A stretch of 32,000 bases of DNA from Dickeya solani IPO 2222 (lineage in GTDB: Bacteria > Pseudomonadota > Gammaproteobacteria > Enterobacterales > Enterobacteriaceae): assembly GCF_001644705.1 (NCBI RefSeq), contig NZ_CP015137.1, positions 600,001 to 632,000 of the forward strand. The letters are read 5' to 3'. Shown piece after piece: positions 8,168 through 23,626 of this stretch. How positions within the stretch are numbered: the first letter of the stretch is position 1; the number at the start of each line of letters is the position of its first letter. The notes beneath the pieces were generated by a model. That model was not told where the DNA came from and searched no databases. It saw only the letters and a list, made by a program, of their open reading frames with translations. The position numbers were made by a program, and so were the translations under genes.

Positions 8168-9028
8168 TTATGACCGCAACGCGGTGCGGCGGTTAAGCGC
8201 GGCGAACGCCGGGCTGTGTTGTAGTTGGTCAATCGTACGTTCACCTTCGACGAGCGCATCGATACTGGTGTGGACTGAATAGGCGCCCGTCACGAGCGGG
8301 TACGGATGTTTAGCCGATGAACCGATGACCAGTTCGACATCACCCTCGGCGGTCATTTCGATTGCCTCATTCCCTTGTGCGAACACCGCCAGCTCACGCT
8401 CAAGCACCGCCTCACCGACGCGCAGCTTGCCGCTATTCAGCGCCAGCCACGCCGTATCGTGATCGGCACCGGGTTGGTAGATCCAGCGCTCGCCGTCGGT
8501 CAGACGAACATGAAGATAGGTGATGGACACGGGCAACTGAATCGGGCTGGTTGCGCTGCCGTAGCGTCCAAGCAGGATACGCGCCGGCCCGTCGCGCTCG
8601 ATCCGTTCCGGTTCCAGATACAGACTCTGCGCAGGAGCAAGCTCAAGCGATGGCGGAAGCGCGATCCAGAGCTGATACCCGCGCATCATGTGGTCAGGCG
8701 CGGGCTCGCCGGCGTGCCATACCCCGCTTCCGGCGCGCATCCACTCGACCGATCCCGCAGACATCGCGCCCTGCTTTCCGGTGGTATCGCCATAGGTCAT
8801 GCTGCCTTCCAGGAAGGTAGTGAGCGTCGCAATACCCGAATGAGGATGAGGTCTGAAACCCGTACCGGTTGACGGTATGGACTCGAACAGATCCAGGAAA
8901 ACGAACGGTTTGACCCGTTGCCCCAGATCGCCAGGCGTCATCAGCCGGGTGAGTGGACCAAGACGTTGACCCGACGTACGGTGAACGATGGCGCGCGTTG
9001 CCGCAGAAAAAGCCAGAGGGTGTGCCAT
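8168..9028 (-). CDS. Pirin-family bicupin protein
   Basis: Contains the FRPHPHSGIATLTTFLEG cupin metal motif and a WIALP motif. I prefer the ATG at 9028 (MAHPLAF...) with an AAAGG RBS, because the longer ORF-track start translates through the tandem repeat. Confidence 0.8.
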   Translation of the reverse strand: MAHPLAFSAATRAIVHRTSGQRLGPLTRLMTPGDLGQRVKPFVFLDLFESIPSTGTGFRPHPHSGIATLTTFLEGSMTYGDTTGKQGAMSAGSVEWMRAGSGVWHAGEPAPDHMMRGYQLWIALPPSLELAPAQSLYLEPERIERDGPARILLGRYGSATSPIQLPVSITYLHVRLTDGERWIYQPGADHDTAWLALNSGKLRVGEAVLERELAVFAQGNEAIEMTAEGDVELVIGSSAKHPYPLVTGAYSVHTSIDALVEGERTIDQLQHSPAFAALNRRTALRS

Positions 9029-9040
9029 AAGCGGTACCTT

Positions 9041-9118
9041 TTGGAAGCGAAGAGCAAGATGTTGAAACGAGAAGCCAGATGTTAAAGCGAAAGCCAAATG
9101 TTGAAGCGAAAGCCAGAT
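9041..9118. repeat. Four tandem ~19-20-bp direct repeats, consensus GTTGAAGCGA(G)AAGCCAGAT
   Basis: Read directly from the sequence: TTGGAAGCGAAGAGCAAGAT / GTTGAAACGAGAAGCCAGAT / GTTAAAGCGAAAGCCAAAT / GTTGAAGCGAAAGCCAGAT. They lie in the azoR-pirin intergenic region and end 13 nt before the pirin start codon. Confidence 0.85.
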
Positions 9119-9190
9119 CGAGCGGCGCCGATACCCATCAATGACCGGTCGGCACCGCGCAACGCAACGCCGGTAAACCCAGACGGTAAG

Positions 9191-9802
9191 TCAGGCGATA
9201 AGCGCGTCGATTTCCACTCTGGCCTTTGCCATCGCGGCGGTTTTCGCTTCATCGCCCAGTGCCAGACCTTCCGCACGAATAATGGTGATGTCGGTCAGAC
9301 CGATGAAATTGAGCGCGGCCGTCAGATAGGGTTCCTGATGATCGAATTGAGCCGCAGGGCTGTCGCTGCTGTAGATGCCGCCGCGTGCCGAAGCGATGAA
9401 AACCTTCTTGCCTGCCGGCAGCAGCCCTTCCGGCCCATGTTCGGTGTAGCGGAAGGTATGCCCGGCGACCAGCACGCGATCAATCCAACCTTTTAGCTGG
9501 GAAGAGATCGAGAAATTGTACATCGGCGCGCCAATGACGATAACGTCGGCGGCGAACAGCTCGTTGATGTAAGCGCCGCCGAGGGCGATGTCCTGCCCAA
9601 GCGCCGGCGTGCCGGGCGTTCCGCCCTGAAAGACGGCGAGATGGTCGGGGGACAGGTGCCATGCCGCATCAGCGACAAGATCCCGACGAATAACGGTTTT
9701 CCCCGGATGAATGTTGAGTTGTCTGGCTACAATGTCGGCCGACAGCAGGCGGCTCACGGAATGGCTGCCAAGAATGCTGGAATCAATATGCAGGATGCTC
9801 AC
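9191..9802 (-). CDS. azoR: FMN-dependent NADH-azoreductase / quinone reductase
   Basis: ILHIDSSILG...APMYNFSISSQLKGWIDRVLVAGHTFRYTEHGPEGLLPAGKKVFIASARGG aligns with remembered E. coli AzoR (AcpD). GTG start with an AAGGAG RBS. Confidence 0.85.
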   Translation of the reverse strand: MSILHIDSSILGSHSVSRLLSADIVARQLNIHPGKTVIRRDLVADAAWHLSPDHLAVFQGGTPGTPALGQDIALGGAYINELFAADVIVIGAPMYNFSISSQLKGWIDRVLVAGHTFRYTEHGPEGLLPAGKKVFIASARGGIYSSDSPAAQFDHQEPYLTAALNFIGLTDITIIRAEGLALGDEAKTAAMAKARVEIDALIA

Positions 9803-9937
9803 TGGTAGATCTCCTTAACAAGGCCGGAACAGGCCGGTGAGTGGATGACGACTGGAGTATTTCACCCTGCAATAAATCTGAATAGACGCTATATTTTTAT
9901 ACATACCATCTCAATTTCAGATACATCAGGATTCCAA

Positions 9938-10846
9938 ATGCTCGATGGCGTATCGCTGGATCAATTACGAACGTTCATTACTGCGGTTGATGAAGGAAGT
10001 TTCTCGGCGGCGGCGCGCCGACTCAGGCGTGCGCAATCCGCCATCAGCGAGCTGGTGCGCAGTCTGGAAGAACAGCTCGACGTTACGCTTTTTGATCGCA
10101 CCGGCCGCTACCCGCGGCTGACGCCGGTGGGCACCGCGTTACTGGCCAACGCCCGCGATATCGTTGCCGGCGTTGATGCCATGAAATCACGCGCCAAAGG
10201 CATGGCCGCCGGGCTGGAGCCCGAGCTGACCATCGTGGTTGACGTTTTCTACCCCATTGACGTGCTGACTAACGCGGCCAAAGCGTTTCGTGAACAGTTT
10301 CCCAACGTGCCATTACGCATCTATGTTGAGGCATTGGGTGCGGCGTATCAGCCGGTACTGGACCGGCATGCCAGCGTTGGGATCGTCAGTTTTCTGCCGG
10401 TGACGCCACCGGGCATCGTCACCGAGCCATTAGGCCGCATCACCCTCGCCATGGTCGCCGCCGCGGACCACCCGCTCGCCGCATTTCAGGGGCCGATCCC
10501 CAGACAGGAACTCGCCAGGCATGTCCAACTGGTACTGACCGATCGCTCAGAGCACTCCAGGGGGCGAGAGTTTGGCGTCATGTCCCCCAAAACCTGGCGG
10601 CTGGCGGACCTGTTTGCCAAACATGCTTTTTTGCTCAATGGGTTGGGATGGGGCGGCATGCCGATGCATACCATCCAGTCGGACCTTGATAGTGGCCGGC
10701 TCGTTAAACTCACCATCGAAGATGAACCCGTCAACGAACCGTCCATGCTGATGTCGGCCGTGTATCGGATTGACAACCAGCCAGGTCCCGCCGGTCGCTG
10801 GCTTATCGAGCACATGACCGCATGCTCCCGCCACCGATCAGCCTGA
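9938..10846 (+). CDS. LysR-family transcriptional regulator, divergent from azoR
   Basis: The N-terminal wHTH LDQLRTFITAVDEGSFSAAARRLRRAQSAISELVRSLEEQLDVTLFDR is followed by a LysR substrate-binding domain. The ATG at 9938 has a CAGGA RBS; the ORF-track start at 9845 is an unlikely extension. Confidence 0.85.
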   Translation: MLDGVSLDQLRTFITAVDEGSFSAAARRLRRAQSAISELVRSLEEQLDVTLFDRTGRYPRLTPVGTALLANARDIVAGVDAMKSRAKGMAAGLEPELTIVVDVFYPIDVLTNAAKAFREQFPNVPLRIYVEALGAAYQPVLDRHASVGIVSFLPVTPPGIVTEPLGRITLAMVAAADHPLAAFQGPIPRQELARHVQLVLTDRSEHSRGREFGVMSPKTWRLADLFAKHAFLLNGLGWGGMPMHTIQSDLDSGRLVKLTIEDEPVNEPSMLMSAVYRIDNQPGPAGRWLIEHMTACSRHRSA

Positions 10847-10851
10847 ATGCG

Positions 10852-10879
10852 CGGTGCAGCGGCGGACGCCGCTGCACCG
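10852..10879. terminator. GC-rich perfect hairpin between convergent genes (terminator-like, no U-tract)
   Basis: CGGTGCAGCGGCG (10852-10864) pairs with CGCCGCTGCACCG (10867-10879). It sits 6 nt after the LysR stop. It lacks a flanking T-run on either strand, so its function is uncertain. Confidence 0.35.
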
Positions 10880-10930
10880 GTAAGCCGTATCCCGCAACAG
10901 CGGATAAGGGAAAAGGTTATCGCCCCGGCG

Positions 10931-11689
10931 TCAGTGGGCACGTAATTCAGACAAGAATTTCTGCGCCCGTTCACTCTGCGGATGAGTAAAAAAGTCTTCG
11001 GGCTTGCCGGTTTCGATAAGGGTTCCCCTGTCCATAAACCAAATGGTATCCGCAACGTCACGCGCAAAATTCATTTCATGTGTGACGCACATCATCGTCA
11101 TGCCGTCACGGGCCAGACTCTTCATCACCTGCAAAACCTCCCCGACCATTTCCGGATCCAGCGCGCTGGTCGGTTCGTCAAACAGCATGACCGGCGGGTC
11201 CATCGCCAGCGCCCGTGCAATCGCGACACGCTGCTGCTGTCCCCCGGATAGCTGACCGGGATAGGCATCCGCCTTATCCGCCAGACCAACCCGCTCAAGC
11301 AGTTCCACCGCACGGATGCGCGCTCGTGGGCGACCGTGCTTTCTCACGTTAACCGGTGCCAGCATGATGTTATCCGCCACGGAAAGATGAGGGAACAGAT
11401 TGAAACTCTGGAAGACAAACCCGACATTACAACGATAGTCGTTAATATTCAGGTTGGCGGAATGTATATCCCGGCCATCAAAATTAATGATGCCACTCTG
11501 AATTTCTTCCAGCCGGTTTACCGTTCGAATCAAGGTCGACTTCCCCGACCCTGATGGCCCGCAAACCACCACCACTCCACCTAATCTGATCTCTGCCGTG
11601 ATATTATTGAGGGCGTGATAATCGCCGTACCACTTATTCACGCCGACAAAGGTAATCATCGGAGGAGAGTTATGTTTTATCGTTGACAT
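10931..11689 (-). CDS. Polar amino-acid ABC transporter ATP-binding protein (GlnQ/HisP-like)
   Basis: Walker [10 protein letters not shown], signature [15 protein letters not shown], Walker [13 protein letters not shown]-loop VTHEM. Confidence 0.9.
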
Positions 11690-11715
11690 AAAAATACCTT
11701 AGAATGAATAACCGC

Positions 11716-12420
11716 TCAGGAAATTCCAGCACGCTTATAAGAAATACGACGTTCGATATAACGTGAAAACTGAGTCAAGAAATAACCCAATATGAAATAG
11801 ATAATCGCCAACAGAAAAAACACCTGAAAAGATTTAGTGAGCAGTGCATTGTTAATCTGATTCGCCGCATACGTCAATTCATTGACGCTGATAATGTAAG
11901 CCAGAGACGTATCTTTAATAACGGATATAAACTGCCCAATTAATGCAGGGATCATGTTATACAGCGCCTGAGGTAAAATAACTTTTTTTATCGACTGGAT
12001 ATAGCTTAACCCTACCGCACGTGACGCCTCCATCTGCCCTTTCGGCAATCCCTGGATCCCGGCTCGTATAATTTCTGAAATATAAGCCCCTTCATAAATG
12101 ACCAGGGTGATCAGCATGGTCGAAAAACCGCTGATGGCGTGACCAATTAATGCCGGAACAAAAAAATAAACCCAGAAAATAAACATAAGCAGCGGCACAC
12201 CACGCACCAGGTACACCATCCAGGTCGCCGGACGGCTTAACCAGGGGAACGGGCTGATACGCGCCATCGCCAGCAGGACGCCCAGCGGAAAAGCCAATGC
12301 GATTCCCAGTGCAGACAATATCAGCGTGATCACAATCCCGCCGAGAGGCCCTTCCGGGTATTGTCCGATTAACAGCAACAGTCCGTTATCGCGTAAGATA
12401 TGTATCATATCGTCCATCAT
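11716..12420 (-). CDS. Amino-acid ABC transporter permease (His/Glu/Gln/Arg/opine family)
   Basis: Multi-TM protein with the EAA-type loop (EASRAVGLSYIQSIKKVILPQA). Its start overlaps the upstream permease stop by 1 nt (TAATG). Confidence 0.85.
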   Translation of the reverse strand: MMDDMIHILRDNGLLLLIGQYPEGPLGGIVITLILSALGIALAFPLGVLLAMARISPFPWLSRPATWMVYLVRGVPLLMFIFWVYFFVPALIGHAISGFSTMLITLVIYEGAYISEIIRAGIQGLPKGQMEASRAVGLSYIQSIKKVILPQALYNMIPALIGQFISVIKDTSLAYIISVNELTYAANQINNALLTKSFQVFFLLAIIYFILGYFLTQFSRYIERRISYKRAGIS

Positions 12421-13112
12421 TACCTCGACTGAATACGATAACGTTGTTCAAGCACACTTCCCGTGTACATAATAAGTAGCGAAACCGCGAGATAAATCAG
12501 TGTCGCCAATAAATACACTTCCACGGTGTGGAATGACTCACTTTCTATTTCCCGGGTAACATAGGTCAGTTCGGTCAGCCCAATCGCCATTGCCAGACTG
12601 CTATTCTTGAACAGTAAAACGGAATGATTCACCAATGCCGGCAAGGCTATCCTCAGAGCCTGAGGAATCATCACCAGACGGGCCGTTTTGAGATAACTCA
12701 AACCAAGCGCCCGTGACGTTTCGTACTGCGCATAAGGAATAGAACGAATACCTCCCCGTAAATCCTCCGACATATAGGCTGACATGGTTAGCCCGATGGA
12801 GATAAACGCACACAGAAATTCACCGTGGTGTTCGTTAATCCAGCGCTGCATGTCGGCGGGAAGCAGAGCGGGAATACCGAAATACCAGATAAATAACTGC
12901 ACCAGCATAGGAACGTTCTGGTGGTATTCCACATAAATTGCCACAATAGGGTGAAACAGTTTTTGATTACTCATCCGAATAATCGCTAATACTGCACCAA
13001 GCACCATTGCCAGCAACCAGGAGCACAGCGACAACCCCAGCATAGTGAGAAACCCACTCATAATCCTTGAGGGATAATCCCCGCTTAGCAGGACAGAAAA
13101 ATCCAGCGACAT
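12420..13112 (-). CDS. Amino-acid ABC transporter permease (His/Glu/Gln/Arg/opine family)
   Basis: Multi-TM protein with the EAA-type loop (ETSRALGLSYLKTARLVMIPQALR). Confidence 0.85.
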   Translation of the reverse strand: MSLDFSVLLSGDYPSRIMSGFLTMLGLSLCSWLLAMVLGAVLAIIRMSNQKLFHPIVAIYVEYHQNVPMLVQLFIWYFGIPALLPADMQRWINEHHGEFLCAFISIGLTMSAYMSEDLRGGIRSIPYAQYETSRALGLSYLKTARLVMIPQALRIALPALVNHSVLLFKNSSLAMAIGLTELTYVTREIESESFHTVEVYLLATLIYLAVSLLIMYTGSVLEQRYRIQSR

Positions 13113-13183
13113 AGTTCTAACCTTTAATCATGCTACTCAAGATAACGCTGTTATTTTAGGTAGGGCACAATGAAGCATTGATA

Positions 13184-13996
13184 TTAATCAATAGGTTTGA
13201 TAGTAAAAGTCCGCTGCAATTTATAAGGTGTATTGGGACCTACCCATTTATCAAAAATTTTGGTTGCTTCGCCAGACTTTTCCATATTCCCGAGAATTTC
13301 ATTTACCTTGTCAATGAATGCGGTTTCGCCTTTACGCATTCCCAGCCCCCAATGCTCAACCATAATTTCCGGCTCAAGAATATCGAGGCTGTCTTTGCCC
13401 GTAAGCTGATTTTTATATTTCACCAACATCAGTTCGCCAAGCGCAATGCCATCAACTTTACTTTGCTGCAACGCCAGAAACGCGGTCGGCGGGTCCTGGA
13501 ATGTCATGGTAGGCGATGCAGGCAGGACTTTTTTAACCGCCATTTCCGAGGTTGATCCTTTAGGTGCGCTAATGCGTTTTCCTGACAACGCATAAATATC
13601 CTTGAACCCGTCACTATGCCGCGCGGCAATTTTTGTCAGACTGAGATAATATTGATCGCTATAGGCAATCTGCTGAGCACGTTCGGGCGTCCATCCCAAC
13701 GCCGCCGCCAGAATATCAACGCGCCCCTGAATCAATTCAGGAATACGGGCCGGGACGGAAATTTGTTTCAGTTCCAGTTTAACGCCCAAACCGTCAGCGA
13801 TGGATTGACAAAAATCCACGTCATACCCCTCCAGCTGCCGAGTTTCCGGATGAGTAAAGCTAAATGGTTCGGTAGTACCTAACGTACCACACACCAATAC
13901 GCCTTTAGCTTTTATATCAGCCAGCTGATCGGCCGAAGCCTGCATGGTGGTAAAAATAGAGCCAAATACAATTAACGATGCAAGTAAGCGACGCAT
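13184..13996 (-). CDS. Periplasmic polar amino-acid-binding protein (SBP family 3)
   Basis: Signal peptide MRRLLASLIVFGSIFTTMQASA. The mature part has SBP_bac_3 features (KGVLVCGTLGTTEPFSF...GYDVDFCQSIADGLGVK). GAGGA RBS. Confidence 0.85.
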   Translation of the reverse strand: MRRLLASLIVFGSIFTTMQASADQLADIKAKGVLVCGTLGTTEPFSFTHPETRQLEGYDVDFCQSIADGLGVKLELKQISVPARIPELIQGRVDILAAALGWTPERAQQIAYSDQYYLSLTKIAARHSDGFKDIYALSGKRISAPKGSTSEMAVKKVLPASPTMTFQDPPTAFLALQQSKVDGIALGELMLVKYKNQLTGKDSLDILEPEIMVEHWGLGMRKGETAFIDKVNEILGNMEKSGEATKIFDKWVGPNTPYKLQRTFTIKPID

Positions 13997-14087
13997 ATAA
14001 TTTCCTCTTGTTTTACATTTATCATGTGTAATACCCCGGTCTAAATATCATCCTACTCAGAGTTAAAAATAAAAAAAACGATTTAAA

Positions 14088-14129
14088 TTTATTGTTTTAA
14101 ATTCCAAAAAGAGATTTAATAACAATAAA
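14088..14129. promoter_or_regulatory. AT-rich 15/16-bp inverted repeat in the SBP / LysR-1 divergent control region
   Basis: TTTATTGTTTTAAAT (14088-14102), an 11-nt loop, then ATTTAATAACAATAAA (14114-14129). This gives 15 bp of complementarity with one bulged T, ending 21 nt before the LysR start. Confidence 0.35.
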
Positions 14130-14150
14130 CTCATTTATGCCGGTGCAAAC

Positions 14151-15050
14151 ATGACATTTAAACAACTAGAAGCACTCTATTGGGTCGCACAGTTAGGTGG
14201 CTTTCAGCTTGCTGCACTAAAATTGCACACAACGCAGTCAGCAATATCAAAAAGAATACAGGAGCTGGAAAATATATTAGGCATTCCACTGTTTGACAGA
14301 AATCAGCGCGCCTCCCGATTAACGGAAAAAGGCGAAGAAATGTTAATTCTGGCAAAAAGAATTCTGGATATGCGCGCATCAGCATTAGAGCAAATCAGCT
14401 CTCCTGATATCATTGAGCGCTCCATTCGAATCGGCGTTACAGAATTAACGGCAATGACCTGGCTGCCGCGCCTGGTTAGCCTGATACAAAGTCACTATCC
14501 GCGTGTGACGCTGGAACCTGATGTTGATATGAGCATTAATCTCAGAGAAAAATTACTGACTGATCATATTGATTTAATGATCGTGCCTGACGCATTTGCA
14601 GAACCACAGCTGGTATCTCAACCGGTTGGAAAAGTCGATAACGTATGGATGTGTAAGCCGGGTTTGCTTGATAATACAGGTGAGACGATTCGCCTGCACG
14701 AATTAGGCGAGCATAAATTACTCATGGATAAATCAGGACCTGGGTTGATCTATCACCGCTGGTTTAAAATGCTTGGTTTTAGCCCCGAGCATAAAATGGT
14801 GAGTAACAGTATCGTGGCACTATTGGCGCTGACAATATCAGGATTAGGGATAAGCTATTTCCCCAAAAATTGCCTTCAAAGGCTGGTTGACGCGGGAATG
14901 CTAGTCGAACTGAATGTCACCCCGGTACTCCCGCCAATAACCTATGTTGCCATCTATAAATCAGATGTTCGCAGCGAACTGATATCGTCGATTATCATGC
15001 TGGCACAAAATTGCTGTAACTTTAATACGATACTCAGTAGTGACCTATAA
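14151..15050 (+). CDS. LysR-family transcriptional regulator (paralogue 1, 299 aa)
   Basis: wHTH FKQLEALYWVAQLGGFQLAALKLHTTQSAISKRIQELENILGIPLFDR. It shares the block GVTELTAMTWLP and the same length with the LysR at 19943..20842. Confidence 0.85.
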   Translation: MTFKQLEALYWVAQLGGFQLAALKLHTTQSAISKRIQELENILGIPLFDRNQRASRLTEKGEEMLILAKRILDMRASALEQISSPDIIERSIRIGVTELTAMTWLPRLVSLIQSHYPRVTLEPDVDMSINLREKLLTDHIDLMIVPDAFAEPQLVSQPVGKVDNVWMCKPGLLDNTGETIRLHELGEHKLLMDKSGPGLIYHRWFKMLGFSPEHKMVSNSIVALLALTISGLGISYFPKNCLQRLVDAGMLVELNVTPVLPPITYVAIYKSDVRSELISSIIMLAQNCCNFNTILSSDL

Positions 15051-15102
15051 TAAAAAATCACTACTGTAAAATACCATCAGGTATCCACTATGCTTAGCGT
15101 TT

Positions 15103-15133
15103 AAAAAACCTCTTCTTATTACCTCAGAAGAGG
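15103..15133 (-). terminator. Rho-independent terminator of the catabolic operon (after the dehydrogenase gene)
   Basis: On the minus strand: CCTCTTCT, a 9-nt loop, AGAAGAGG, then TTTTTT. On the plus strand the stems are 15109-15116 and 15126-15133, with the A-run at 15103-15108. Confidence 0.7.
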
Positions 15134-15180
15134 CTTAACGAAGCAACAATCATCGGTCGTCACGTAACAACCCACACCGC

Positions 15181-16455
15181 TTACCCCGGATAAATACCTC
15201 TTTCTTTTCTTGCGGTCAGAATACGTTCACAGGCAACAATATAAGCCGCGGTTCTGAGGGTACACTGTTTTTCTTTGGCTTTATCCCAAACGTGATGAAT
15301 AGCATCGCGCATAATGTTATCCATACGCGCATTGATTTCGTCCTCTGTCCAGAAATAACTGGCGATATCCTGCACCCACTCAAAATAACTGACGGTAACC
15401 CCACCGGCATTGCAAATCACATCTGGCACCACCGTTATGCCACGCTGCGCCAAAATATCATCTGCATCCGGATACGTCGGTCCATTAGCGCCTTCAAGCA
15501 CCAGTTTACATTTAAGCCGTTGCGCCCGTCCGGCGGTAATTTGCCCCTCCAGCGCCGCCGGGATGACGATATCTGCCTCAACATCCCAGAAAGACTCATC
15601 CGCAATCGGTTCTGCCCCCGGAAAACCGGCAATCACTTTATGCGTTTTAAACCAGCTCACTAACGCGTCAATCGCTATGCCATGACCGTTATACAACGTG
15701 CCGGAATGATCCTGCACACACACCACCTGTGCACCCGCCTCGACAAACAGCAAAGCGGCTTCGCTGCCGACATTACCGAACCCCTGAACCGCGACACGGG
15801 AACCCGCCACATCAATATTCAATTGCGTGGCCACTTCCCTGCCGGTCACGAAAACGCCGCGCCCGGTCGCTTTTACTCGCCCCAGAGAGCCGCCCAGATG
15901 CACCGGTTTGCCGGTGACGACCCCGGTCACGGTGGCGCCAACATTCATGGAATACGTGTCCATGACCCACGCCATCACCTTGGCGTTCGTACCGACATCC
16001 GGAGCCGGAATATCCTGCTGCGGCCCGATGATCAGGCTGATCTCACTGGTGTAACGCCGGGTCAACCGTTCCAGTTCGCTTTCCGACAGCTTTGCCGGGT
16101 CAACCCGAATACCGCCTTTAGCGCCGCCGAATGGCAAATTCAGTGCCGCCGATTTAATGGTCATCCAGGCCGACAGCGCCATCACGTCGTTCAAATCGAC
16201 GTTCGGATGATAGCGAATGCCGCCTTTTCCCGGCCCCCGTGACAGGTTGTGCTGCACGCGGAAACCTTCAAAATGCCGAATCGTCCCGTCGTCCATCACG
16301 ACCGGGATGTCCACAATCAGTGCGCGTTTGGGGTGACGCAATGTATCAATCCAGGGAACCAATTCGCCCAGATAAGGCGCCACTCTATCGATCTGAGCCA
16401 GATAGGTGTGCCATGCATTCGCATCATGTTCATTTACATAAGAAAGCTGAGACAT
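15181..16455 (-). CDS. Glu/Leu/Phe/Val dehydrogenase family; ~424-aa catabolic (RocG/GudB-like) glutamate dehydrogenase type
   Basis: Contains [11 protein letters not shown]...[16 protein letters not shown] (catalytic Lys-Gly motif) and the nucleotide fold [12 protein letters not shown] prefer the ATG at 16455, which sits 9 nt after AAGGAG; the ORF-track start at 16473 lacks an RBS. Confidence 0.85.
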
Positions 16456-16493
16456 TACCAGACGCTCCTTCATTCATTATCGGCAGTACATCA

Positions 16494-17759
16494 TCAGCGG
16501 CTTGTCAACGCCTGCTGGTGCCGCTGCGCATCAAACTTGCTTTCCCATTTCGCAATTACCAGCGGTGCCAGCTCGTTGCCTAATACATTTAATGCGGTAT
16601 TCGGCATATCCATTAAGCGGTAAACCCCGGCGATAAACGCAATTCCTTCCAACGGAATTCCGACACTGGATAATGTCACGGACAGAATGACAAACATAAA
16701 TCCCGGTACACCCGCTGCGCCTTTCGAGGTAATCACCATCGTCGCAACCAACACCAACTGGTCTGACAGCGAAAGATGGATGTTATAAATCTGAGCGATA
16801 AATAATGTTCCAATCCCCAAAAATAATGACGCGCCATCCAGATTAAAGGAATATCCCGTCGGGACGACAAAGCTGGTAATGGATTTATCGGCGCCGAAGC
16901 GTTCTACTTTCTGCATGATCTGCGGCAATACCGAGGCGGAACTGGCGCTTGAGAATGCCAGAACCAATTCACTGCGAATAAACTTGATCAGTGAAAAAAC
17001 ATTGATGCCGGAAAAGCGGGCAATCAGGCCGAAAATCACCAGAACAAATAATAATGCGGTGATATAGGTGGTAACAATCAGCTTAACCAACGGCAACAGT
17101 GATGCTGCGCCGAATGTCGATACCGTCACCCCCATCATGCCAAAAATACCGATCGGCGAGTACGCCATAATCATACTGGTGACGCGAAACATGGCATCCG
17201 CAATACCGGAAAAGACCGTAATGATGGTCTCTTTTTTCGATTTTTCTACCGCAGTCAGCCCCAAACTGAATATGACGGCGAAGAAAATCACCGGCAGAAG
17301 ATTACCGCTCGCCATAGCGGAAACAATATTATCGGGAATAATACCAAGAATAACCTGCCCCAGCCCGTGGCCATGCGCCGCCGTGCCGCCGATACCTGAT
17401 ACCGGGGTTTTCACCACCGATGACATATCGACACCTTCTCCCGGTTTGATCACATTGCCCACCACCAGCCCGCACAGAATGGCTATCGTGGTGACACTGA
17501 GGAAATAGGTTATCGTTTTTATGCCAAGGCGCCCCATCGATTTGCTGTCGCCATGTCCGGCAATGCCGACGATAAGACAAGAAAAAACAATCGGGATAAC
17601 AATCATCTTCATCAGCTTGATAAAGATATCGCCAGCCGGTTGCAAGACTTGCTCAATGATCCAATGACTGTATTCCTGATGTTGATTTAAAAAAAGTCCG
17701 ATACAAATACCGAGAAATAATCCGATAACTATTTGCCATAGTAATGATATTTTTGGCAT
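16494..17759 (-). CDS. Dicarboxylate/amino acid:cation symporter (GltP-like glutamate/aspartate transporter family)
   Basis: Collinear with remembered E. coli GltP: PAGDIFIKLMKMIVIPIVFS...VPTGYSFNLDGASL...ITSKGAAGVPG...DMPNTALNVLGN. Confidence 0.85.
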   Translation of the reverse strand: MPKISLLWQIVIGLFLGICIGLFLNQHQEYSHWIIEQVLQPAGDIFIKLMKMIVIPIVFSCLIVGIAGHGDSKSMGRLGIKTITYFLSVTTIAILCGLVVGNVIKPGEGVDMSSVVKTPVSGIGGTAAHGHGLGQVILGIIPDNIVSAMASGNLLPVIFFAVIFSLGLTAVEKSKKETIITVFSGIADAMFRVTSMIMAYSPIGIFGMMGVTVSTFGAASLLPLVKLIVTTYITALLFVLVIFGLIARFSGINVFSLIKFIRSELVLAFSSASSASVLPQIMQKVERFGADKSITSFVVPTGYSFNLDGASLFLGIGTLFIAQIYNIHLSLSDQLVLVATMVITSKGAAGVPGFMFVILSVTLSSVGIPLEGIAFIAGVYRLMDMPNTALNVLGNELAPLVIAKWESKFDAQRHQQALTSR

Positions 17760-17925
17760 AGATTTACCCTAATTAATTGGTTGTTTTGTGTGTTTGCTTT
17801 TATTGTTGTCTCTTTAATACCTCACGTTGCCGGGCGGTTGTGACTCCAGCCGCCGACATCAGCACGCGACTGGAGCGCACCCGGTTGCCGCCTGCCTGCA
17901 ACGCGAATTATTTAGGTAATAATGG

Positions 17926-19143
17926 TTAACTCAATTGACTGACTGCCGTTTTGATGCGCCGGCATCCTTCATTAATAGCGTCAAGCGAACTGGCAAAGGA
18001 AATTCGCAGGAAGGGAGACATGCCGTAAGCCCGGCCGCCTACCGTCGCAACGCCGCCGTGGGCCAATAGGTATTCGACCACATCATCATCACTCTCCAGC
18101 GCTTTTCCTGACGCGGTGACTTTACCCAGCAGCCCGCCGACATTGACATACAGATAAAACGCCCCCGCCGGCGGCGCGAAGCTGATGCCAGGTATATCGC
18201 TCAAGGCGGAGACAACCACATCACGCCGTGCTTTATAAACCTCCAGCATGGCTTTCACCGGTTGCTGCTCGCCGGCAAATGCGGCGACCGCTGCCGCCTG
18301 ACTGACCGAAGAAGGGCACGTTGTCGTCTGCGAAAGCAGTTTAGCCATCGCGGAAATCAGCCACGCCGGCCCGGCACCAAAACCAAGACACCAGCCAGTC
18401 ATGGCGTAGCCTTTAGACGCGCCATTAACAATCAGCAAGCGATCGCGCAGGTCCGGCGCCACTTCCGCCATGGAAATATGCTGGTGACCGTCATAAACAA
18501 AATGCTCGTAAATCTCATCCAGCATAATCAGCACATGCGGGTGCTGACGCAGCACCTCCGCCAGACGACTCAATTCCTGATGCGAATACACGGCGCCGCT
18601 CGGGTTATTGGGGTAATTGATCACAACCCATTTGGTCGCCGGCGTAATGGCCCGGCTCAGTGCTTCGGGCGTCAATTTGAACTGATTGACCTCATCCCCT
18701 GTAATAACGACAGGAAATGCGTCATTCAGTACCGCCAAATCGGGATAGGAAACCCAGTAAGGGGCATGAATAATGACCTCGTCCTGTGCATTCAGCGTAG
18801 CGGCGAACGCGTGAAAAATAATATGTTTTCCGCCGCTGCCGCACACAATTTCATTCAGACCATAATCCAGCCGGTTATCCCGTTTTAATTTCTGGGCGAT
18901 AGCGTTTCTCAGCGCCACGGTGCCGCTTGCCGACGTATAGTGGGTTTCGCCCTGCGTCATGGCGGTGATAGCGGCGTCGATAATATGCTGCGGCGTATCG
19001 AAATCCGGTTCGCCGATAGTGAAATTAATAATGTCTTTCCCTTCACTGCGCAGTCTGCTCACCAATTCGTTGGCCGCAATGCTGGGAGACGGTTTAATGC
19101 GTTTTAAGCGATGGGAAAGCCATGCCGAGTCAGTCATGATCAC
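17926..19143 (-). CDS. PLP-dependent class I/II aminotransferase (aspartate aminotransferase-like)
   Basis: Contains IINFTIGEPDFDTP, NYPNNPSGAVY and SKGYAMTGWCLG (the PLP-lysine SK motif). The GTG start overlaps the upstream stop (GTGA); the alternative ATG is at 19137. Confidence 0.85.
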   Translation of the reverse strand: MIMTDSAWLSHRLKRIKPSPSIAANELVSRLRSEGKDIINFTIGEPDFDTPQHIIDAAITAMTQGETHYTSASGTVALRNAIAQKLKRDNRLDYGLNEIVCGSGGKHIIFHAFAATLNAQDEVIIHAPYWVSYPDLAVLNDAFPVVITGDEVNQFKLTPEALSRAITPATKWVVINYPNNPSGAVYSHQELSRLAEVLRQHPHVLIMLDEIYEHFVYDGHQHISMAEVAPDLRDRLLIVNGASKGYAMTGWCLGFGAGPAWLISAMAKLLSQTTTCPSSVSQAAAVAAFAGEQQPVKAMLEVYKARRDVVVSALSDIPGISFAPPAGAFYLYVNVGGLLGKVTASGKALESDDDVVEYLLAHGGVATVGGRAYGMSPFLRISFASSLDAINEGCRRIKTAVSQLS

Positions 19144-19796
19144 AGATATCCTTTTTCCTGCAGCAGGTCGGTATACCAGGAGGCATCGCCCGCTGCGATT
19201 TGTTGTTTAACCTGCTCTTCTTTCTCAGCATGTTTGGCGGCAAGTGATACCAGCGCCGCTTTAAATTCATAGGCAAAGCAGACAATGCCATCTTCGTCGC
19301 CAACGATAATATCGCCCGGCGCAATGACCTGACCGCCCACACAGACCGGCGTATTGATTTCACCCGGTCCATTTTTAAATGGGCCTTTATGGATAATACT
19401 TCGCGCATAGCAAGGCGTATTTTCAAAGCTGGCCGCATCACGAATTGCGCCATCGACAATAAAGCCTACGCAACCCCGTCGCACGCAATCCAGTTTTATT
19501 AATTCGCCGATGACAGCATTATTTTCATCGCCCTGAGCATCAATCACCAGAACATGTCCGGGCTGAATCATGGTCATGGCTTTATAGACCAGCAAATTGT
19601 CGCCACCACGCACCTTCACGGTTAATGCCGTACCGATAAGTTTGCCGGTTTTATTTATCCGCTGGAGTCCTTTCACGCCGATATTACGCGACATGTTATC
19701 GCTGAGATGAGGGGTCACCACATACGTAAAAGCGTCACGTTCATCCGCACTCATCGGGGGGACGGCTGGATTAACAATACTGCCGGGATTCGCCAT
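19140..19796 (-). CDS. RraA-family protein; class II 4-hydroxy-2-oxoacid aldolase / oxaloacetate decarboxylase type (HMG/CHA aldolase-like)
   Basis: Contains VRGGDNLLVYKAMTMIQPGHVLVIDAQGDENNAVIGELI...GFIVDGAIRD...GDIIVGDEDGIVC, the RraA/aldolase fold signature. I take the ATG at 19796 as the start (MANPGS...); the ORF-track TTG at 19814 is the alternative. Confidence 0.75.
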   Translation of the reverse strand: MANPGSIVNPAVPPMSADERDAFTYVVTPHLSDNMSRNIGVKGLQRINKTGKLIGTALTVKVRGGDNLLVYKAMTMIQPGHVLVIDAQGDENNAVIGELIKLDCVRRGCVGFIVDGAIRDAASFENTPCYARSIIHKGPFKNGPGEINTPVCVGGQVIAPGDIIVGDEDGIVCFAYEFKAALVSLAAKHAEKEEQVKQQIAAGDASWYTDLLQEKGYL

Positions 19797-19920
19797 ACTT
19801 TTCTCTAATATCAAATGGTTATTAAATAGCGCTCATCACTGAACCTGTTCAATTCATCCCGATATTAATCGTAGATTTTCACCATTTTTAGCGATATTTT
19901 AACATGAAACATCATCACTT

Positions 19921-19934
19921 TTTTTCATGAAAAA
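19921..19934. promoter_or_regulatory. Perfect 14-bp palindrome TTTTTCATGAAAAA upstream of LysR-2
   Basis: Read directly from the sequence. It ends 8 nt before the LysR-2 ATG, inside the 128-bp divergent control region shared with the aldolase operon. Confidence 0.3.
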
Positions 19935-19942
19935 GAGCCTCA

Positions 19943-20842
19943 ATGATCACATTTAAACAGATGGACGCACTGATTTGGATTGTCAACATGGGCAGTTTCG
20001 AAGCGGCGGCGAGCAAGTTAAACATGTCACAATCCGCTATTTCCAAACGCATTCATGAAATTGAGGAGGCGTTTGATATCGAGATATTTGACCGCAAAAG
20101 CAGGAATGCCCGTCTGACGCATAAAGGCCGGGAACTGCTGGATTATTGCCAGGATATCGTCACCCGCCGTGATGCCATGCTGGAACGAATCAGTAATAAG
20201 AAAATCTTATTTAGCAATCTGCGACTTGGGGTAACGGAATTAACCGCGATGACATGGCTTCCGGGGCTTATTGAGAATATTCGGGCGGACTATCCCAAGG
20301 TACAGATTCACCCGACGATCGATGTCAGCTTTAACCTGTTTAACCAGCTCAATAATGACTTGCTGGATATTATTATCGTTCCTGATATCTATAACGATAC
20401 CCGGTTTATCAATACGCCATTAAAAAGCGTGGAGAATGCCTGGATGTGCTCTCCAACGCTGATACCGCCGCATAAAGAGCTGAGCCTTAGCGACATTGCA
20501 AACTATTCATTTCTGACACAGGGCACGCAATCCGGAACGGGGCTGATTTATGAACGCTACTTTGCCAGCCGCAATCTGGTATTAAATAAAACCATTGTTT
20601 GCAGTAACCTCATCGCCCAGGTTGGGTTGGCCATTGCCGGGCTGGGCATCACCTATCTCCCCGCCCGTGCTCTGCATCATTTGATTACCCAGGGGAAACT
20701 TGGCGTTATCAAATTGAAACCCGCCCCGCCGCTTGTACGTTATGCCGTCATGTACCGTGCCGACCGGAATGTGGGTCTGATGCCGGATATTGCCAACATC
20801 GCCGCCAGTAACTGTAATTTTGATCATTTCCAGTTGTCCTGA
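19943..20842 (+). CDS. LysR-family transcriptional regulator (paralogue 2, 299 aa)
   Basis: wHTH FKQMDALIWIVNMGSFEAAASKLNMSQSAISKRIHEIEEAFDIEIFDR. It shares GVTELTAMTWLP and collinear blocks with the LysR at 14151..15050. Confidence 0.85.
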   Translation: MITFKQMDALIWIVNMGSFEAAASKLNMSQSAISKRIHEIEEAFDIEIFDRKSRNARLTHKGRELLDYCQDIVTRRDAMLERISNKKILFSNLRLGVTELTAMTWLPGLIENIRADYPKVQIHPTIDVSFNLFNQLNNDLLDIIIVPDIYNDTRFINTPLKSVENAWMCSPTLIPPHKELSLSDIANYSFLTQGTQSGTGLIYERYFASRNLVLNKTIVCSNLIAQVGLAIAGLGITYLPARALHHLITQGKLGVIKLKPAPPLVRYAVMYRADRNVGLMPDIANIAASNCNFDHFQLS

Positions 20843-20852: not shown

Positions 20853-21926
20853 CTACTGGCTCAACCGGTGCGCAATCAACCGCAGTTCTTCGGCGATTTG
20901 CTGCAAATCGCGCTGTGCATCAATGCGGGGGCCGGTGGAATTGCGGATCACCAGCCTGGCCGGCAGGATGGACGACGATCGCTGCACATCGCTGTCGTTG
21001 GCATTCAGCAGACGGTGCACCGCTTCCTTGCCCTGCAGGTCGAGGTCCAGCGAGACGGTGGTCAGCGCCGGATGGAAAAACGAACTTTCATACGTACCAT
21101 CGTAACCAATCACCGATTTCTGGCCGGGAATGGTCAGCTGATTCTGATGAAACGCACTTAATACGCCGAGCGCCATCTGATCGTTAGCGACCAGTACCGC
21201 GCTGAACTGCGGCGTTTCGCGCAGCATCTGCAGTGCGCCGGCGTAGCCGCTTTGCGCATCCCAGTTGCCGTGAATCACCGTTATCGGCGTCAGGCCGTAC
21301 CCATCCAGGGTTTCCAGCCAGTTTTTCAGTCTCAACCGCGCTGAAACCGAACCGGCCGGCCCCGCCAGCAAAGCGAAGTCGCGGTGCCCCAGTTCATACA
21401 GATACTTCACGCTGGCTCGCGTGCCGTCCGCCGGATTAAAAGAGACGTTGAACACCGAACTGTAGGGGTCAACGTCCAGAAACAGGCACAGAATATCGTC
21501 ATTATCGGCGGCAATACGCTCCGCCTCTTCCGTCTCCAGCGGCACGTTGATGATAACCTTATCAACCCGCTGTGACTTGAGTTCGTTGATAGAATCCTGA
21601 ATGCCATGATTGACGTTCTCATCAATCATGGAAATCAGCACCTGATAACCTTCCGTATTTGCGTATCTTTTCACCGCCGCCGCCACTTGCGAAGGCGCGT
21701 GTAATGCCAGCGACGTCGTCACCAGCCCTATCGTCATGCTCTGCTTACCCACCAGTTGCTGGGCCAGCCGATTGGGAACATAACGCAACAGCTCGATGGA
21801 CTGCTCTACCTTGCGGCGCGTGGACTCGGAGACATTCGCAGATTTATTCAATACCCGCGATACCGTCTGATAAGAAACGCCCGCGTGGCGGGCAACATCT
21901 TCTAACGTAGCGCTTTTCGACTTCAT
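20853..21926 (-). CDS. ganR: LacI-family repressor of the galactan locus
   Basis: ATLEDVARHAGVSYQTVSRVLNKSANVSESTRRKVEQSIELLRYVPNRLAQQLVGKQS is near-collinear with remembered E. coli LacI, including the recognition helix YQTVSRV. It also has LVANDQMALG and VIGYD motifs, and it is adjacent to the gan genes. Confidence 0.85.
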   Translation of the reverse strand: MKSKSATLEDVARHAGVSYQTVSRVLNKSANVSESTRRKVEQSIELLRYVPNRLAQQLVGKQSMTIGLVTTSLALHAPSQVAAAVKRYANTEGYQVLISMIDENVNHGIQDSINELKSQRVDKVIINVPLETEEAERIAADNDDILCLFLDVDPYSSVFNVSFNPADGTRASVKYLYELGHRDFALLAGPAGSVSARLRLKNWLETLDGYGLTPITVIHGNWDAQSGYAGALQMLRETPQFSAVLVANDQMALGVLSAFHQNQLTIPGQKSVIGYDGTYESSFFHPALTTVSLDLDLQGKEAVHRLLNANDSDVQRSSSILPARLVIRNSTGPRIDAQRDLQQIAEELRLIAHRLSQ

Positions 21927-22021
21927 GGTCGGGTTTCCCGTCGTGGTTTTACCGGGATTGTAACAGCTGCCCCAGCGAAAAAACCATGTTCTGAACCCTA
22001 TTCAGGCCAATTTATATGCAA

Positions 22022-22036
22022 GTATTACGTTCACAT
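22022..22036. promoter_or_regulatory. Candidate distal GanR operator (inverted copy of the 22160-22174 site)
   Basis: GTATTACGTTCACAT is the exact reverse complement of ATGTGAACGTAATAC at 22160-22174. It contains a TGTGAAC half-site resembling the lac operator half-site TGTGAGC. Confidence 0.4.
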
Positions 22037-22159
22037 ATCAAAAACCCGTGATGGGCATCACCAATCATTACAAAACAAAATGATTTATTTGCATTAAATC
22101 ACAATAAAACAACGAATCCGTTGCTCAGTTTTACGCTTAGGCATTTTATTGATCGCGTA

Positions 22160-22174
22160 ATGTGAACGTAATAC
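22160..22174. promoter_or_regulatory. Candidate proximal GanR operator in the ganL leader/promoter
   Basis: ATGTGAACGTAATAC. The GTG-N9-CA spacing is the same as in lac O1. It lies 20 nt upstream of the ganL ATG and downstream of a possible TTGCTC-N17-TTTTAT promoter (22121-22149). Confidence 0.4.
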
Positions 22175-22193
22175 ATAACAACAAGAGGCCATC

Positions 22194-23465
22194 ATGAACA
22201 CCAAACTCCTTACTCTCTCTACCGCTCTCACCGCCATACTGACCTCGCCGGCATTACTGGCGGCAGAGGCAACCACCGTCCCCATTGATTTTCACGGCTA
22301 TCTGCGCGGCGGCGTAGGGGTGTCCAATGATGGCGGCATGTCGCAATGGCAAAAAAACAAAGTGGGCCGTCTGGGTAACGAAAACGATACCTATGGCGAA
22401 GTGGAACTGGGCTCGGAGGTGTACAAAAAGAACGACGTCAGTTTCTATGTCGACAGCATGGTCAGCATGGTGTCGGATGGCTCCAACGATAACGAAACCA
22501 CCATTGGCGATGACGCCCAGTTCGGCCTGCGCCAGTTGAATCTGCAAATCAAGGGGCTGGTCCCCGGCGACCCTAACGCCATGATTTGGGGCGGTAAACG
22601 CTACTACCAGCGTCACGATCTGCACATTATCGATACCAAATACTGGAATATATCCGGCTCCGGCGCCGGGATTGAAAACTATACCCTCGGCCCCGGCGCG
22701 CTCTCCGTCGCCTGGATCCGCGGCGACGCCAACGCGGTTGACGACCGCATCAACGGCAACAGCAACGTCAACATCAACTATGCCGATATCCGCTATGCCG
22801 GGCTGAAACCCTGGAAAGGCGCCTGGACGGAATTCGGCATCGACTACGCCATGCCGAACACCACCAAAAAACAGAAAGACTTCGGCGGCCTGTATGACGC
22901 GGACAACGGCGTGATGCTGACCGGCGAAATCAGTCAGGACATGCTGGGCGGTTACAACAAGGTGGTGCTGCAATACGCCAATAAAGGGCTGGCGCAAAAC
23001 ATGGTGTCGCAAGGCGGCGGCTGGTATGACATGTGGAATCAGGTTAACAGCGCCACCGGCTATCGCGCCATCAACACCGGTCTGATTCCGCTCACCAGCC
23101 GGTTGTCGTTTAACCATGTGTTGACCTGGGGTTCGGCTAACCACATCAATGAAGCAACCGACACCACCCGGCTACTGTCGCTGGTAGGGCGTCTGCAATA
23201 CCAGTTTACCGATTATGTGCGCGGTATCGGCGAAGTGGGTGCATTCACCCAGAAAGACAACTTCAAAAACGGCACCTCGTTTAAACAAAGCGGCGAGAAA
23301 TACACGCTGGCACTGGCGCTGGCGGCCGGCCCGGCATTTATGTCACGCCCGGAATTGCGCCTCTACACCTCTTATCTGAACGACAGTCAGGACGGCAAGC
23401 CATTCAAGGACGGCACCGCCAATAACACCTGGAACGTTGGCGTACAGGTTGAGGCCTGGTGGTGA
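22194..23465 (+). CDS. ganL: Maltoporin (LamB)-family oligogalactan porin
   Basis: Signal peptide MNTKLLTLSTALTAILTSPALLAAEA, LamB-type start IDFHGYLRGGVG, a beta-barrel-like alternating sequence, and the C-terminal WNVGVQVEAWW. AAGAGG RBS. Confidence 0.85.
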   Translation: MNTKLLTLSTALTAILTSPALLAAEATTVPIDFHGYLRGGVGVSNDGGMSQWQKNKVGRLGNENDTYGEVELGSEVYKKNDVSFYVDSMVSMVSDGSNDNETTIGDDAQFGLRQLNLQIKGLVPGDPNAMIWGGKRYYQRHDLHIIDTKYWNISGSGAGIENYTLGPGALSVAWIRGDANAVDDRINGNSNVNINYADIRYAGLKPWKGAWTEFGIDYAMPNTTKKQKDFGGLYDADNGVMLTGEISQDMLGGYNKVVLQYANKGLAQNMVSQGGGWYDMWNQVNSATGYRAINTGLIPLTSRLSFNHVLTWGSANHINEATDTTRLLSLVGRLQYQFTDYVRGIGEVGAFTQKDNFKNGTSFKQSGEKYTLALALAAGPAFMSRPELRLYTSYLNDSQDGKPFKDGTANNTWNVGVQVEAWW

Positions 23466-23548
23466 TCGACGCGATATACGGAATACCCTGTTCTCCGGAG
23501 GTTGTTTTCATCATTATTATCTGAGTTATTGACGCTGTTGTTTTTTTT

Positions 23549-23581: not shown

Positions 23582-23626
23582 ATTTATCCATATATTATTT
23601 ATTATCCTGCCGTTATTGACGAGCTA

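Follow-up and report, generated by a model that had tools for sequence, protein, structure and literature searches.

Aldolases of the RraA-like fold family are known from the protocatechuate 4,5-cleavage and gallate pathways, in which ProA/LigK/GalC act on HMG (4-hydroxy-4-methyl-2-oxoglutarate) and CHA (4-carboxy-4-hydroxy-2-oxoadipate). In the HMG/CHA aldolase of known structure (PDB entry 3NOJ), Arg123 is essential and stabilizes the enolate, Asp124 is a metal ligand, and Glu199 is a metal ligand that comes from the adjacent subunit; these aldolases use their active site for oxaloacetate decarboxylation as well, with the enolate again as the intermediate (PMC5065237). RraA-like proteins that are competent as enzymes are widespread, and little is known of their physiological role outside aromatic meta-cleavage. 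Here, we describe a cluster of ten genes in Dickeya solani IPO 2222, in which a gene for such a protein is coupled to an aminotransferase gene and to amino-acid importers, not to aromatic meta-cleavage genes. The cluster lies within a stretch of 32,000 nucleotides (contig NZ_CP015137.1, positions 600,001 to 632,000), which we refer to as the window and whose numbering is used for all coordinates. It is a version of a real, widely conserved gene set with a putative function in amino-acid catabolism that is not previously described in the literature searched; the literature search found no description of the module, consistent with the initial annotation, which knew of no named pathway with this gene arrangement.

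Genes were called using an open reading frame (ORF) scan of the window together with Pfam and NCBIfam profile scans. These analyses bear out all ten genes of the initial annotation with their order and coordinates, and each of the ten ORFs is uninterrupted. On the minus strand, the RraA-like gene is followed by genes for an aspartate aminotransferase (AspAT)-like aminotransferase, a GltP-like symporter of the SDF family, and a glutamate dehydrogenase (GDH), and this operon is divergent from the gene for a LysR-type regulator, LysR-B. Next to it, a four-gene ABC importer operon is divergent from the gene for a second regulator, LysR-A.

An alignment of 17 relatives of the RraA-like protein served to retrieve 80 loci, at the level of species, from reference genomes, and homologs of the ten proteins were then located in each locus. 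The core across the 80 loci consists of a LysR regulator gene, the RraA-like gene, and the AspAT-like aminotransferase gene. An aminotransferase with at least 50% identity is encoded directly downstream of the RraA-like protein in 48 of the 80 loci, which indicates that the two represent a conserved functional pair, in support of the earlier proposal that they act in one route. In 40 of these 48 loci, the next gene in the same orientation is for a transporter, i.e., an SDF carrier in 17 loci (Pseudomonas, Acinetobacter ursingii, Dickeya undicola, Cupriavidus basilensis, and Pandoraea terrae) and an ABC importer in 23 loci (Brenneria, Achromobacter, Herbaspirillum, Variovorax, Paraburkholderia, two metagenome-assembled genomes, and a Burkholderiaceae genome). 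The arrangement with an SDF carrier is also present in Pantoea and Pluralibacter, which were fetched separately, and both transporter types occur together in D. undicola, C. basilensis, P. terrae, and Burkholderia cepacia. Because orthologs of the ABC importer (46 to 66% identity for the substrate-binding protein [SBP] and 67 to 78% for the ATPase) directly follow the pair in 23 of the 80 loci, we conclude that the importer belongs to the same pathway, as had been suggested for the importer next to the pair in the window. The idea that the module makes sense in a plant-associated setting fared less well, as it is also found in A. ursingii, Pluralibacter gergoviae, and Achromobacter.

When naive ORFs of the loci were clustered all against all, with several clusters being spurious antisense ORFs of high-GC genomes, no recurring further enzyme was revealed; therefore, central metabolism seems to be within reach of two enzymes. 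A second, divergent pair of RraA-like protein and aminotransferase (29 to 31% and 44 to 47% identity, respectively) adjoins the main RraA-like gene in Pseudomonas loci and is also present in Cupriavidus consociatus. The existence of this second pair suggests that the pairing of a transaminase with an RraA-fold protein is a recurrent design. The second RraA copy examined in Pseudomonas (locus L003) has the motif D-X20-R-D.

The RraA-like gene (19140 to 19796, minus strand) encodes a protein of 218 amino acids as annotated in D. solani, and the ORF extends to 19814. The protein matches PF03737 (134 bits; cut-off, 24.5) as well as NF004850 (242 bits; cut-off, 231), an NCBIfam family labeled "hypothetical protein." NF004850 is the strongest family for all 17 members of the clade, with a best E value of 1.8e-83 versus 2.3e-39 for the next family. 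The best match in the PDB is 3NOJ from Pseudomonas putida (E value, 8e-25). Based on the alignment to 3NOJ and the residue roles described for this enzyme (PMC5065237), Arg123 corresponds to R119, Asp124 to D120, and the trans-subunit Glu199 to E193, while Asp102, in the first position of the motif, corresponds to E98, which is a conservative change. In the alignment of the 17 orthologs, E98-X20-R119-D120, E193, N67, and K141 are invariant. Among the pocket residues of 3NOJ, N71, K147, G101, and G144 are kept in the RraA-like protein, whereas His75, Thr145, and Arg195 are replaced by Tyr, Pro, and His, respectively.

Lack of the metal- and substrate-binding residues of the aldolase clade had been set beforehand as the observation that would speak against the proposed enzyme; the catalytic Arg and the metal ligands are present, and the proposal was therefore not refuted. 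Because these residues of 3NOJ are kept, the RraA-like protein is very probably an active, metal-dependent, pyruvate-forming lyase with a distal pocket that is lined differently. The chemistry is expected to be the same as in the HMG/CHA aldolases, with Mg2+ and a pyruvate enolate leading to either aldol cleavage or oxaloacetate decarboxylation, two activities that are inseparable from sequence alone. The protein is, however, not a LigK/ProA equivalog. It scores below the cut-offs of both LigK/ProA equivalogs (TIGR02798, 103 versus 304.5 bits; NF006731, 121 versus 179 bits), the three pocket residues mentioned differ from 3NOJ, and neither the window nor the fetched loci contain aromatic meta-cleavage genes (lig, pmd, and gal), the neighbors being genes for the aminotransferase, transporters, and LysR regulators.

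The aminotransferase (17926 to 19137, minus strand; PF00155; annotated as 403 amino acids) is a class I-beta AspAT-like protein. Its start had been described as overlapping the stop codon of the aldolase gene; this is correct if translation begins at the alternative GTG at 19143, which gives a GTGA overlap, but not for the annotated ATG at 19137, which is 2 nt past the RraA stop codon. Either start codon fits with translational coupling of the two genes. The protein scores just below the cut-off for the aspartate transaminase equivalog NF004769 (556 versus 617 bits), and very strong HMMER matches in the PDB are the aspartate aminotransferases A (6F77; E value, 7e-122) and B (6F35; E value, 5.5e-114). 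With these class I-beta enzymes and the Thermus AspAT, it has in common the pyridoxal phosphate (PLP)-binding Lys in the SK motif, the NNPSG and DEIYE motifs, and the Lys of the GGK motif. The latter Lys is kept, as GGK or GAK, in all orthologs of the aminotransferase, and we take it to be the equivalent of K109, the distal-carboxylate ligand of Thermus AspAT. However, this Lys would be required for the 2-oxoglutarate/glutamate half-reaction anyway and, therefore, is uninformative with respect to the other substrate.

Beyond its coupling in an operon to a lyase gene, the D. solani enzyme differs from the class I-beta AspATs in the Arg of the GW[R]LG motif. In the window, this codon is TGT for Cys (18388 to 18390, minus strand), while Arg occupies the position in all 62 other homologs examined in the fetched loci. 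The sequence with Cys is found in exactly this form on 43 contigs under D. solani accessions, whereas the Arg is kept in a second form from D. solani (6 contigs) and in several strains of D. dadantii, which are 98 to 99% identical. This residue is presumably Arg266 in the numbering of pig AspAT, which binds the phosphate of PLP. Because Cys replaces the PLP-phosphate Arg, the aminotransferase of the main D. solani lineage is probably weakened or inactive.

The symporter (16494 to 17759, minus strand; 421 amino acids) belongs over its full length to the same SDF/DAACS family (PF00375) as GltP of Escherichia coli and the archaeal GltPh. Its initial description as a GltP-type symporter is thus valid at the level of the family but neither as an equivalog (NF008440, 543 bits versus a cut-off of 638) nor at the binding site. 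In the alignment to GltPh structures, GVYRLMDMPNT in the D. solani carrier replaces GIDAILDMGRT, and Y380, D384, and N387 are found in the positions of D390, D394, and R397 of GltPh. Accordingly, D394, i.e., the Asp for the amino group, is kept, as are the equivalents of T398 and N401. We take R397 of GltPh, whose partner is D390, to bind aspartate at its side-chain carboxylate; with Asn in this position, canonical symport of glutamate- or aspartate-like anions, as originally envisaged, is not supported.

The signature in the positions of D390, D394, and R397 is Y-D-N in Dickeya, Acinetobacter, Pantoea, and Pluralibacter, Y-E-T in the Pseudomonas fluorescens group, and Y-D-T in the Pseudomonas gingeri group, while the Burkholderiales copies have the canonical D-D-R. 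Tyr together with a residue other than Arg is found in all gamma-proteobacterial operon copies of the carrier. The carrier was also used as a query against 1.84 billion cluster representatives. Among the 150 nearest, which were examined, 89 have D-D-R, approximately 30 have a DctA-like D-S/T/N/A-R, and 125 keep the Arg, while only the two closest share the Tyr/non-Arg signature, supporting that the carrier represents a distinct subclade with a remodeled site. The remodeled site argues against plain glutamate or aspartate as the cargo in gamma-proteobacteria.

The ABC importer consists of an ATP-binding subunit (10931 to 11689; PF00005), permease 2 (11716 to 12420; PF00528), permease 1 (12420 to 13112; PF00528), and a periplasmic SBP of the SBP_bac_3 family (13184 to 13996; PF00497), all encoded on the minus strand. 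Both permeases match the HEQRo permease domain TIGR01726 (82.7 bits for permease 2 and 66.3 bits for permease 1; cut-off, 42.2), and the unit is of the polar amino-acid (PAAT/HEQRo) importer type. None of the subunits reached a substrate-specific NCBIfam equivalog; for the ATPase, the nearest models are GlnQ and EhuA, both with scores under the cut-off. The SBP has its best PDB match in AncQR (4ZV1; E value, 7e-33) and is far from the models for glutamate/aspartate-binding proteins (73 bits versus a cut-off of 375). Its motifs are well conserved among orthologs, and their comparison yielded no ligand. Orthologs of the ATPase close the operons in other genera in which the ABC genes follow the RraA-like and aminotransferase genes.

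The GDH is of the hexameric type (15181 to 16455, minus strand) and matches PF00208 (276 bits) and PF02812 (187 bits). Its best PDB matches are the glutamate dehydrogenases 4XGI (E value, 1.5e-182) and 3AOE. The expected length of ~424 amino acids was confirmed for a start at Met7, while the entire ORF, with the alternative start at 16473, gives 430 amino acids. Among the loci examined, GDH is part of the operon only in Dickeya and A. ursingii, and it is, therefore, a lineage-specific accessory, most versions of the module being without it. The suggestion that GDH recycles 2-oxoglutarate is coherent for such an accessory, but the absence of the gene from most versions means that it does not extend to the module as a whole. 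The operon ends, as previously noted, in a clean intrinsic terminator (~15098 to 15140, minus strand) with ~15 paired bases followed by U6 (ΔG, −15.7 kcal/mol; z, −3.14).

Several other genes and elements accompany the module. In Burkholderia sensu lato only (L086, L034, and L067, representing Burkholderia, Caballeronia, and Paraburkholderia), a gene for a DAO-type FAD oxidoreductase lies behind the ABC ATPase gene; this enzyme is an accessory outside the core, and through it a D-isomer of the substrate, or an N-substituted form, might reach the same keto acid. In B. cepacia, the operon of RraA-like, aminotransferase, and SDF genes is followed by a pyruvate carboxylase gene, and another lies a few kilobases from the RraA-like gene in Methylobacterium nonmethylotrophicum (L066). 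In the D. solani operon, the 166-nt gap between the aminotransferase and carrier genes contains a GC-rich hairpin (17842 to 17905, minus strand) with no T-run behind it (ΔG for the entire 166-nt region, −51 kcal/mol; z, −3.0). The hairpin is present in a single copy in the window, is not kept in D. undicola, and is without a match in Rfam; it could be an mRNA-stabilizing or processing element. The Rfam scan of 10.5 to 21.5 kb gave no match.

Both LysR-A (14151 to 15050, plus strand) and LysR-B (19943 to 20842, plus strand) are proteins of 299 amino acids with PF00126 and PF03466. In agreement with their initial description as paralogs, they are 39% identical over the full length (E value, 1e-80) and share the exact block GVTELTAMTWLP; a third LysR encoded just left of the cluster is 27% identical to LysR-A. 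In Herbaspirillum, Variovorax, Rhodoferax, and other Burkholderiales, regulators of the LysR-A type (45 to 58% identity) are encoded upstream of the RraA-like gene in divergent orientation, and the operon behind them mostly has the RraA-like and aminotransferase genes with or without ABC genes. In gamma-proteobacterial loci, the gene for the ortholog of LysR-B (51 to 90% identity) is either divergent from the RraA-like gene or located directly upstream of it.

We identified a candidate LysR-B operator of 14 nt, AAATATCGCTAAAA (19886 to 19899, minus strand), ~90 to 103 nt upstream of the RraA-like start. It occurs in one exact copy in the 32-kb window and matches exactly (14/14) in 29 other fetched loci, at −71 to −153 relative to the RraA-like start, in the genera Dickeya, Brenneria, Acinetobacter, Pantoea, Pluralibacter, and Pseudomonas. 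The box is also present in Pseudomonas loci where a gene for an MFS carrier, not the aminotransferase gene, follows the RraA-like gene. A candidate operator of the LysR-A type, AATTTAAATCGTTTTTTTT / AAATCGTTTTTTTT, is located at ~14071 to 14089 (minus strand) in the intergenic region between LysR-A and the ABC genes. The box A(A/T)ATCG(C/T)TTTT, which is related to the 14-nt box, is found in promoters of the LysR-A type in Herbaspirillum, Variovorax, Rhodoferax, a Burkholderiaceae genome, and this region of Dickeya, and the alignment of eight intergenic regions of the LysR-A type has invariant T-C-G and T4 columns with a −10-like hexamer ~20 nt downstream. That the box at 14071 to 14089 is an operator of this type is something we infer from these patterns only. 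Because related yet different boxes lie upstream of the two units, the operators of LysR-A and LysR-B appear to be related without being the same. In Dickeya, two versions of the module seem to have merged, one in which LysR-B is associated with the RraA-like, aminotransferase, and SDF genes and one in which LysR-A is associated with the ABC genes.

In Pseudomonas loci L003 and L004, we also observed three RraA-like paralogs within 6 kb (region 6000 to 13000 of these loci), each with [D/E]-X20-R-D. One of these is paired with a paralog of the aminotransferase, while two flank an anion-type MFS carrier; the latter group includes a regulator of the LysR-B type and the 14-nt box with two mismatches.

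The gene content and the conserved pairing that we observed, together with the catalytic residues, the signature of the transporter, and the motifs of the operators, suggest a LysR-controlled catabolic module that would import, transaminate, and cleave its substrate. We consider this moderately probable for the cluster as a whole, with all of the reactions, the flux direction, and an effector for the regulators being predictions. A polar amino acid would be taken up via the ABC importer and/or the GltP-like proton symporter, and the AspAT-like aminotransferase would move its amino group onto 2-oxoglutarate. The product, which would be either a 4-hydroxy-2-oxo acid or a beta-keto acid, for example oxaloacetate, would be cleaved by the Mg2+-dependent RraA-fold lyase through a pyruvate-enolate intermediate to yield pyruvate together with glyoxylate, pyruvate, another aldehyde, or CO2. 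In Dickeya and A. ursingii, the GDH encoded in the operon would regenerate 2-oxoglutarate and free ammonium. LysR-A and LysR-B would control the two transcription units via their related operators, which are predicted to overlap the −35 regions. Several observations weigh against this scheme. The AlphaFold2 model built from the 17-sequence alignment of the RraA-like protein had a mean pLDDT of 57, which is too poor for inspection of the pocket; the literature search found no biochemical or genetic data for any member of the module; and the Arg-to-Cys change in the aminotransferase may mean that the pathway does not operate in this strain. In addition, the exclusion of glutamate and aspartate by the carrier is not general because the Burkholderiales carriers keep D-D-R, and the RraA fold also hosts the dehydratase/decarboxylase FlDet, i.e., non-aldolase chemistry (PMC8563752). 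A minority possibility, independent of the role of the module in other bacteria, is that the cluster of the main D. solani lineage is a decaying relic in which the Arg-to-Cys change disables the aminotransferase and the pathway is not running. The uniqueness of the Cys among the homologs examined, its presence on the 43 D. solani contigs while the second D. solani form and D. dadantii keep Arg, and the presumed role of this Arg as a ligand of the PLP phosphate all point in this direction; on the other hand, all ten ORFs are intact, the SK Lys, NNPSG, and DEIYE motifs of the enzyme are present, and partial activity is possible after the loss of one phosphate ligand. That the RraA-like protein is instead a regulator of RNase E, and its adjacency to the aminotransferase gene coincidental, is extremely improbable. 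True RraA shares the Pfam fold family, but the protein scores far below the cut-offs of the models for the RNase E regulator (NF006875, 68 versus 136 bits; TIGR02998, 28 versus 241 bits), is ~60 residues longer with a C-terminal helical extension that carries the trans-subunit Glu, and is tightly coupled to the aminotransferase gene, the two being co-conserved in 48 of 80 loci. Moreover, Mazurkewich et al. reportedly found in 2014 that E. coli RraA is without the enzyme motif, which is intact in the D. solani protein.

If the cluster encodes an import, transamination, and cleavage module, its substrate is most likely something other than plain glutamate or aspartate. The initial annotation favored 4-hydroxyglutamate or 4-hydroxy-4-methylglutamate, which would be converted to 4-hydroxy-2-oxoglutarate (HOG) or HMG and then to pyruvate plus glyoxylate, or to two pyruvates. 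Nothing in the evidence identifies either compound, and we regard this route as possible but doubtful. It would agree with the HMG/CHA aldolase 3NOJ being the nearest solved relative with conserved catalytic residues and with a gamma-proteobacterial carrier that, without the Arg for glutamate and aspartate, could fit a modified side chain; the pyruvate carboxylase genes near the modules of B. cepacia and M. nonmethylotrophicum would also make sense if only pyruvate were formed. The logic of a transaminase followed by an aldolase matches the final steps of hydroxyproline degradation in animals, where HOG aldolase produces pyruvate and glyoxylate from HOG (PMC3188589). In the animal route, aspartate aminotransferase acts on 4-hydroxyglutamate, and here too an AspAT-type enzyme would produce a 4-hydroxy-2-oxo-dicarboxylate for the aldolase, although here this substrate is a candidate, and importers and regulators of its own are part of the bacterial module. 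HOGA1, moreover, belongs to the class I (Schiff-base, DHDPS-family) aldolases and is no metal enzyme of the RraA fold. Arguing against a 4-substituted glutamate, the RraA-like protein is not a LigK/ProA equivalog, its pocket has Tyr, Pro, and His where 3NOJ has H75, T145, and R195, the ORF clustering linked no glyoxylate-handling gene to the module, and the literature search found no link from such amino acids to these genes; a 2026 paper on 4-methyleneglutamine and Pseudomonas mentions no aminotransferase, aldolase, or LysR. A 4-substituted glutamate would also still have its distal carboxylate, so that the loss of the Arg from the carrier is not specifically explained. Conversion of aspartate via oxaloacetate to pyruvate, with decarboxylation by the RraA-like protein and with GDH in Dickeya and Acinetobacter deaminating the glutamate formed as well as that imported, is unlikely but a live rival because the HMG/CHA aldolases also act as oxaloacetate decarboxylases, with the enolate as a shared intermediate (PMC5065237). 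It is in line with the near-equivalog score of the aminotransferase for aspartate transaminase and its closeness to 6F77 and 6F35, with the canonical D-D-R of the Burkholderiales SDF copies, and with RraA-like paralogs of Pseudomonas and Bacillales that are encoded beside organic-anion MFS carriers and 2-hydroxyacid dehydrogenases, which would fit oxaloacetate derived from malate-like acids. Nevertheless, the gamma-proteobacterial carriers are without the Arg for the distal carboxylate, which 125 of the 150 nearest representatives keep, the SBP is far from the glutamate/aspartate-binding models, and a dedicated module with its own LysR and importer would be redundant in these bacteria beside aspartase, AspC, and regulated uptake of glutamate and aspartate. 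Very unlikely, in our view, is a neutral gamma-hydroxy amino acid, such as homoserine or 4-hydroxynorvaline, that would give a 4-hydroxy-2-oxo acid and then pyruvate and an aldehyde. The Tyr/Asn(Thr) signature of the carrier does resemble that of neutral-amino-acid members of the family (ASCT1/2 and Arg mutants of GltPh and EAAC1), the GGK/GAK Lys could be explained by the 2-oxoglutarate/glutamate half-reaction alone, and aldehyde dehydrogenase genes lie near some family members; however, genes for aldehyde handling are inconsistently linked to the module, and the Burkholderiales carriers keep the Arg. The remainder of the probability falls to other substrates, including 3-hydroxy- or 3-methylaspartate and sulfonated or D-amino acids.

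We tentatively entertain a more far-reaching version of the import, transamination, and cleavage scheme, which we hold to be a minority possibility. NF004850 would be the first example of an RraA-fold lyase whose physiological role lies in the catabolism of amino acids. Together with a dedicated paralog of AspAT, it would break down a plant-derived or microbial amino acid that is non-proteinogenic and either gamma-hydroxylated or gamma-substituted, and a GltP-derived carrier with Asn(Thr) and Tyr in place of Arg and Asp would take this compound up. Many Proteobacteria of soil and plants would have such a pathway, which would be controlled through an operator that is identical at 14 of 14 positions across bacterial orders. 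In any case, the module places the NF004850 subfamily in a testable setting with a single partner enzyme, two alternative importers, and a regulator with a sharply conserved candidate operator. If the substrate were identified, this would give a name to a new catabolic route for an amino acid in Pseudomonas, Achromobacter, Burkholderia, Herbaspirillum, Dickeya, and Brenneria, account for a glutamate-transporter binding site that has been re-specified in nature, and show whether D. solani, an emerging potato pathogen, lost the capacity via one point mutation. If the substrate is plain aspartate, the outcome would be only a modest improvement of the annotation.

The GC content is 42 to 56% across the cluster (11 to 21 kb) versus 55 to 61% in the flanks, which prompted us to consider recent horizontal transfer. 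This was not shown: in D. undicola, the cluster is located at the same site, and its proteins (87 to 94% identity) diverge about as much as those of the left flank (87 to 91%). The LacI-type regulator and LamB-type porin of the flank are 97 to 99% identical between the two species versus 87 to 94% for the cluster proteins. Megablast of 14151 to 20842 against a plasmid collection and E. coli genomes gave no match, and the cluster is chromosomal Dickeya DNA. Farther to the left in the window, an ORF of 729 amino acids (555 to 2744) has a weak apolipoprotein-like repeat match, and a low-GC stretch (2000 to 4000; 41 to 45%) beside it has no ORF of at least 150 amino acids. Based on the Pfam scan, the right flank (20853 to 27453) encodes the LacI-type regulator, the LamB-type porin, a GH42 beta-galactosidase, and a GH53 galactanase instead of sucrose genes (ScrR/ScrY). 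This flank looks like a set for galactan utilization that lies outside the module.

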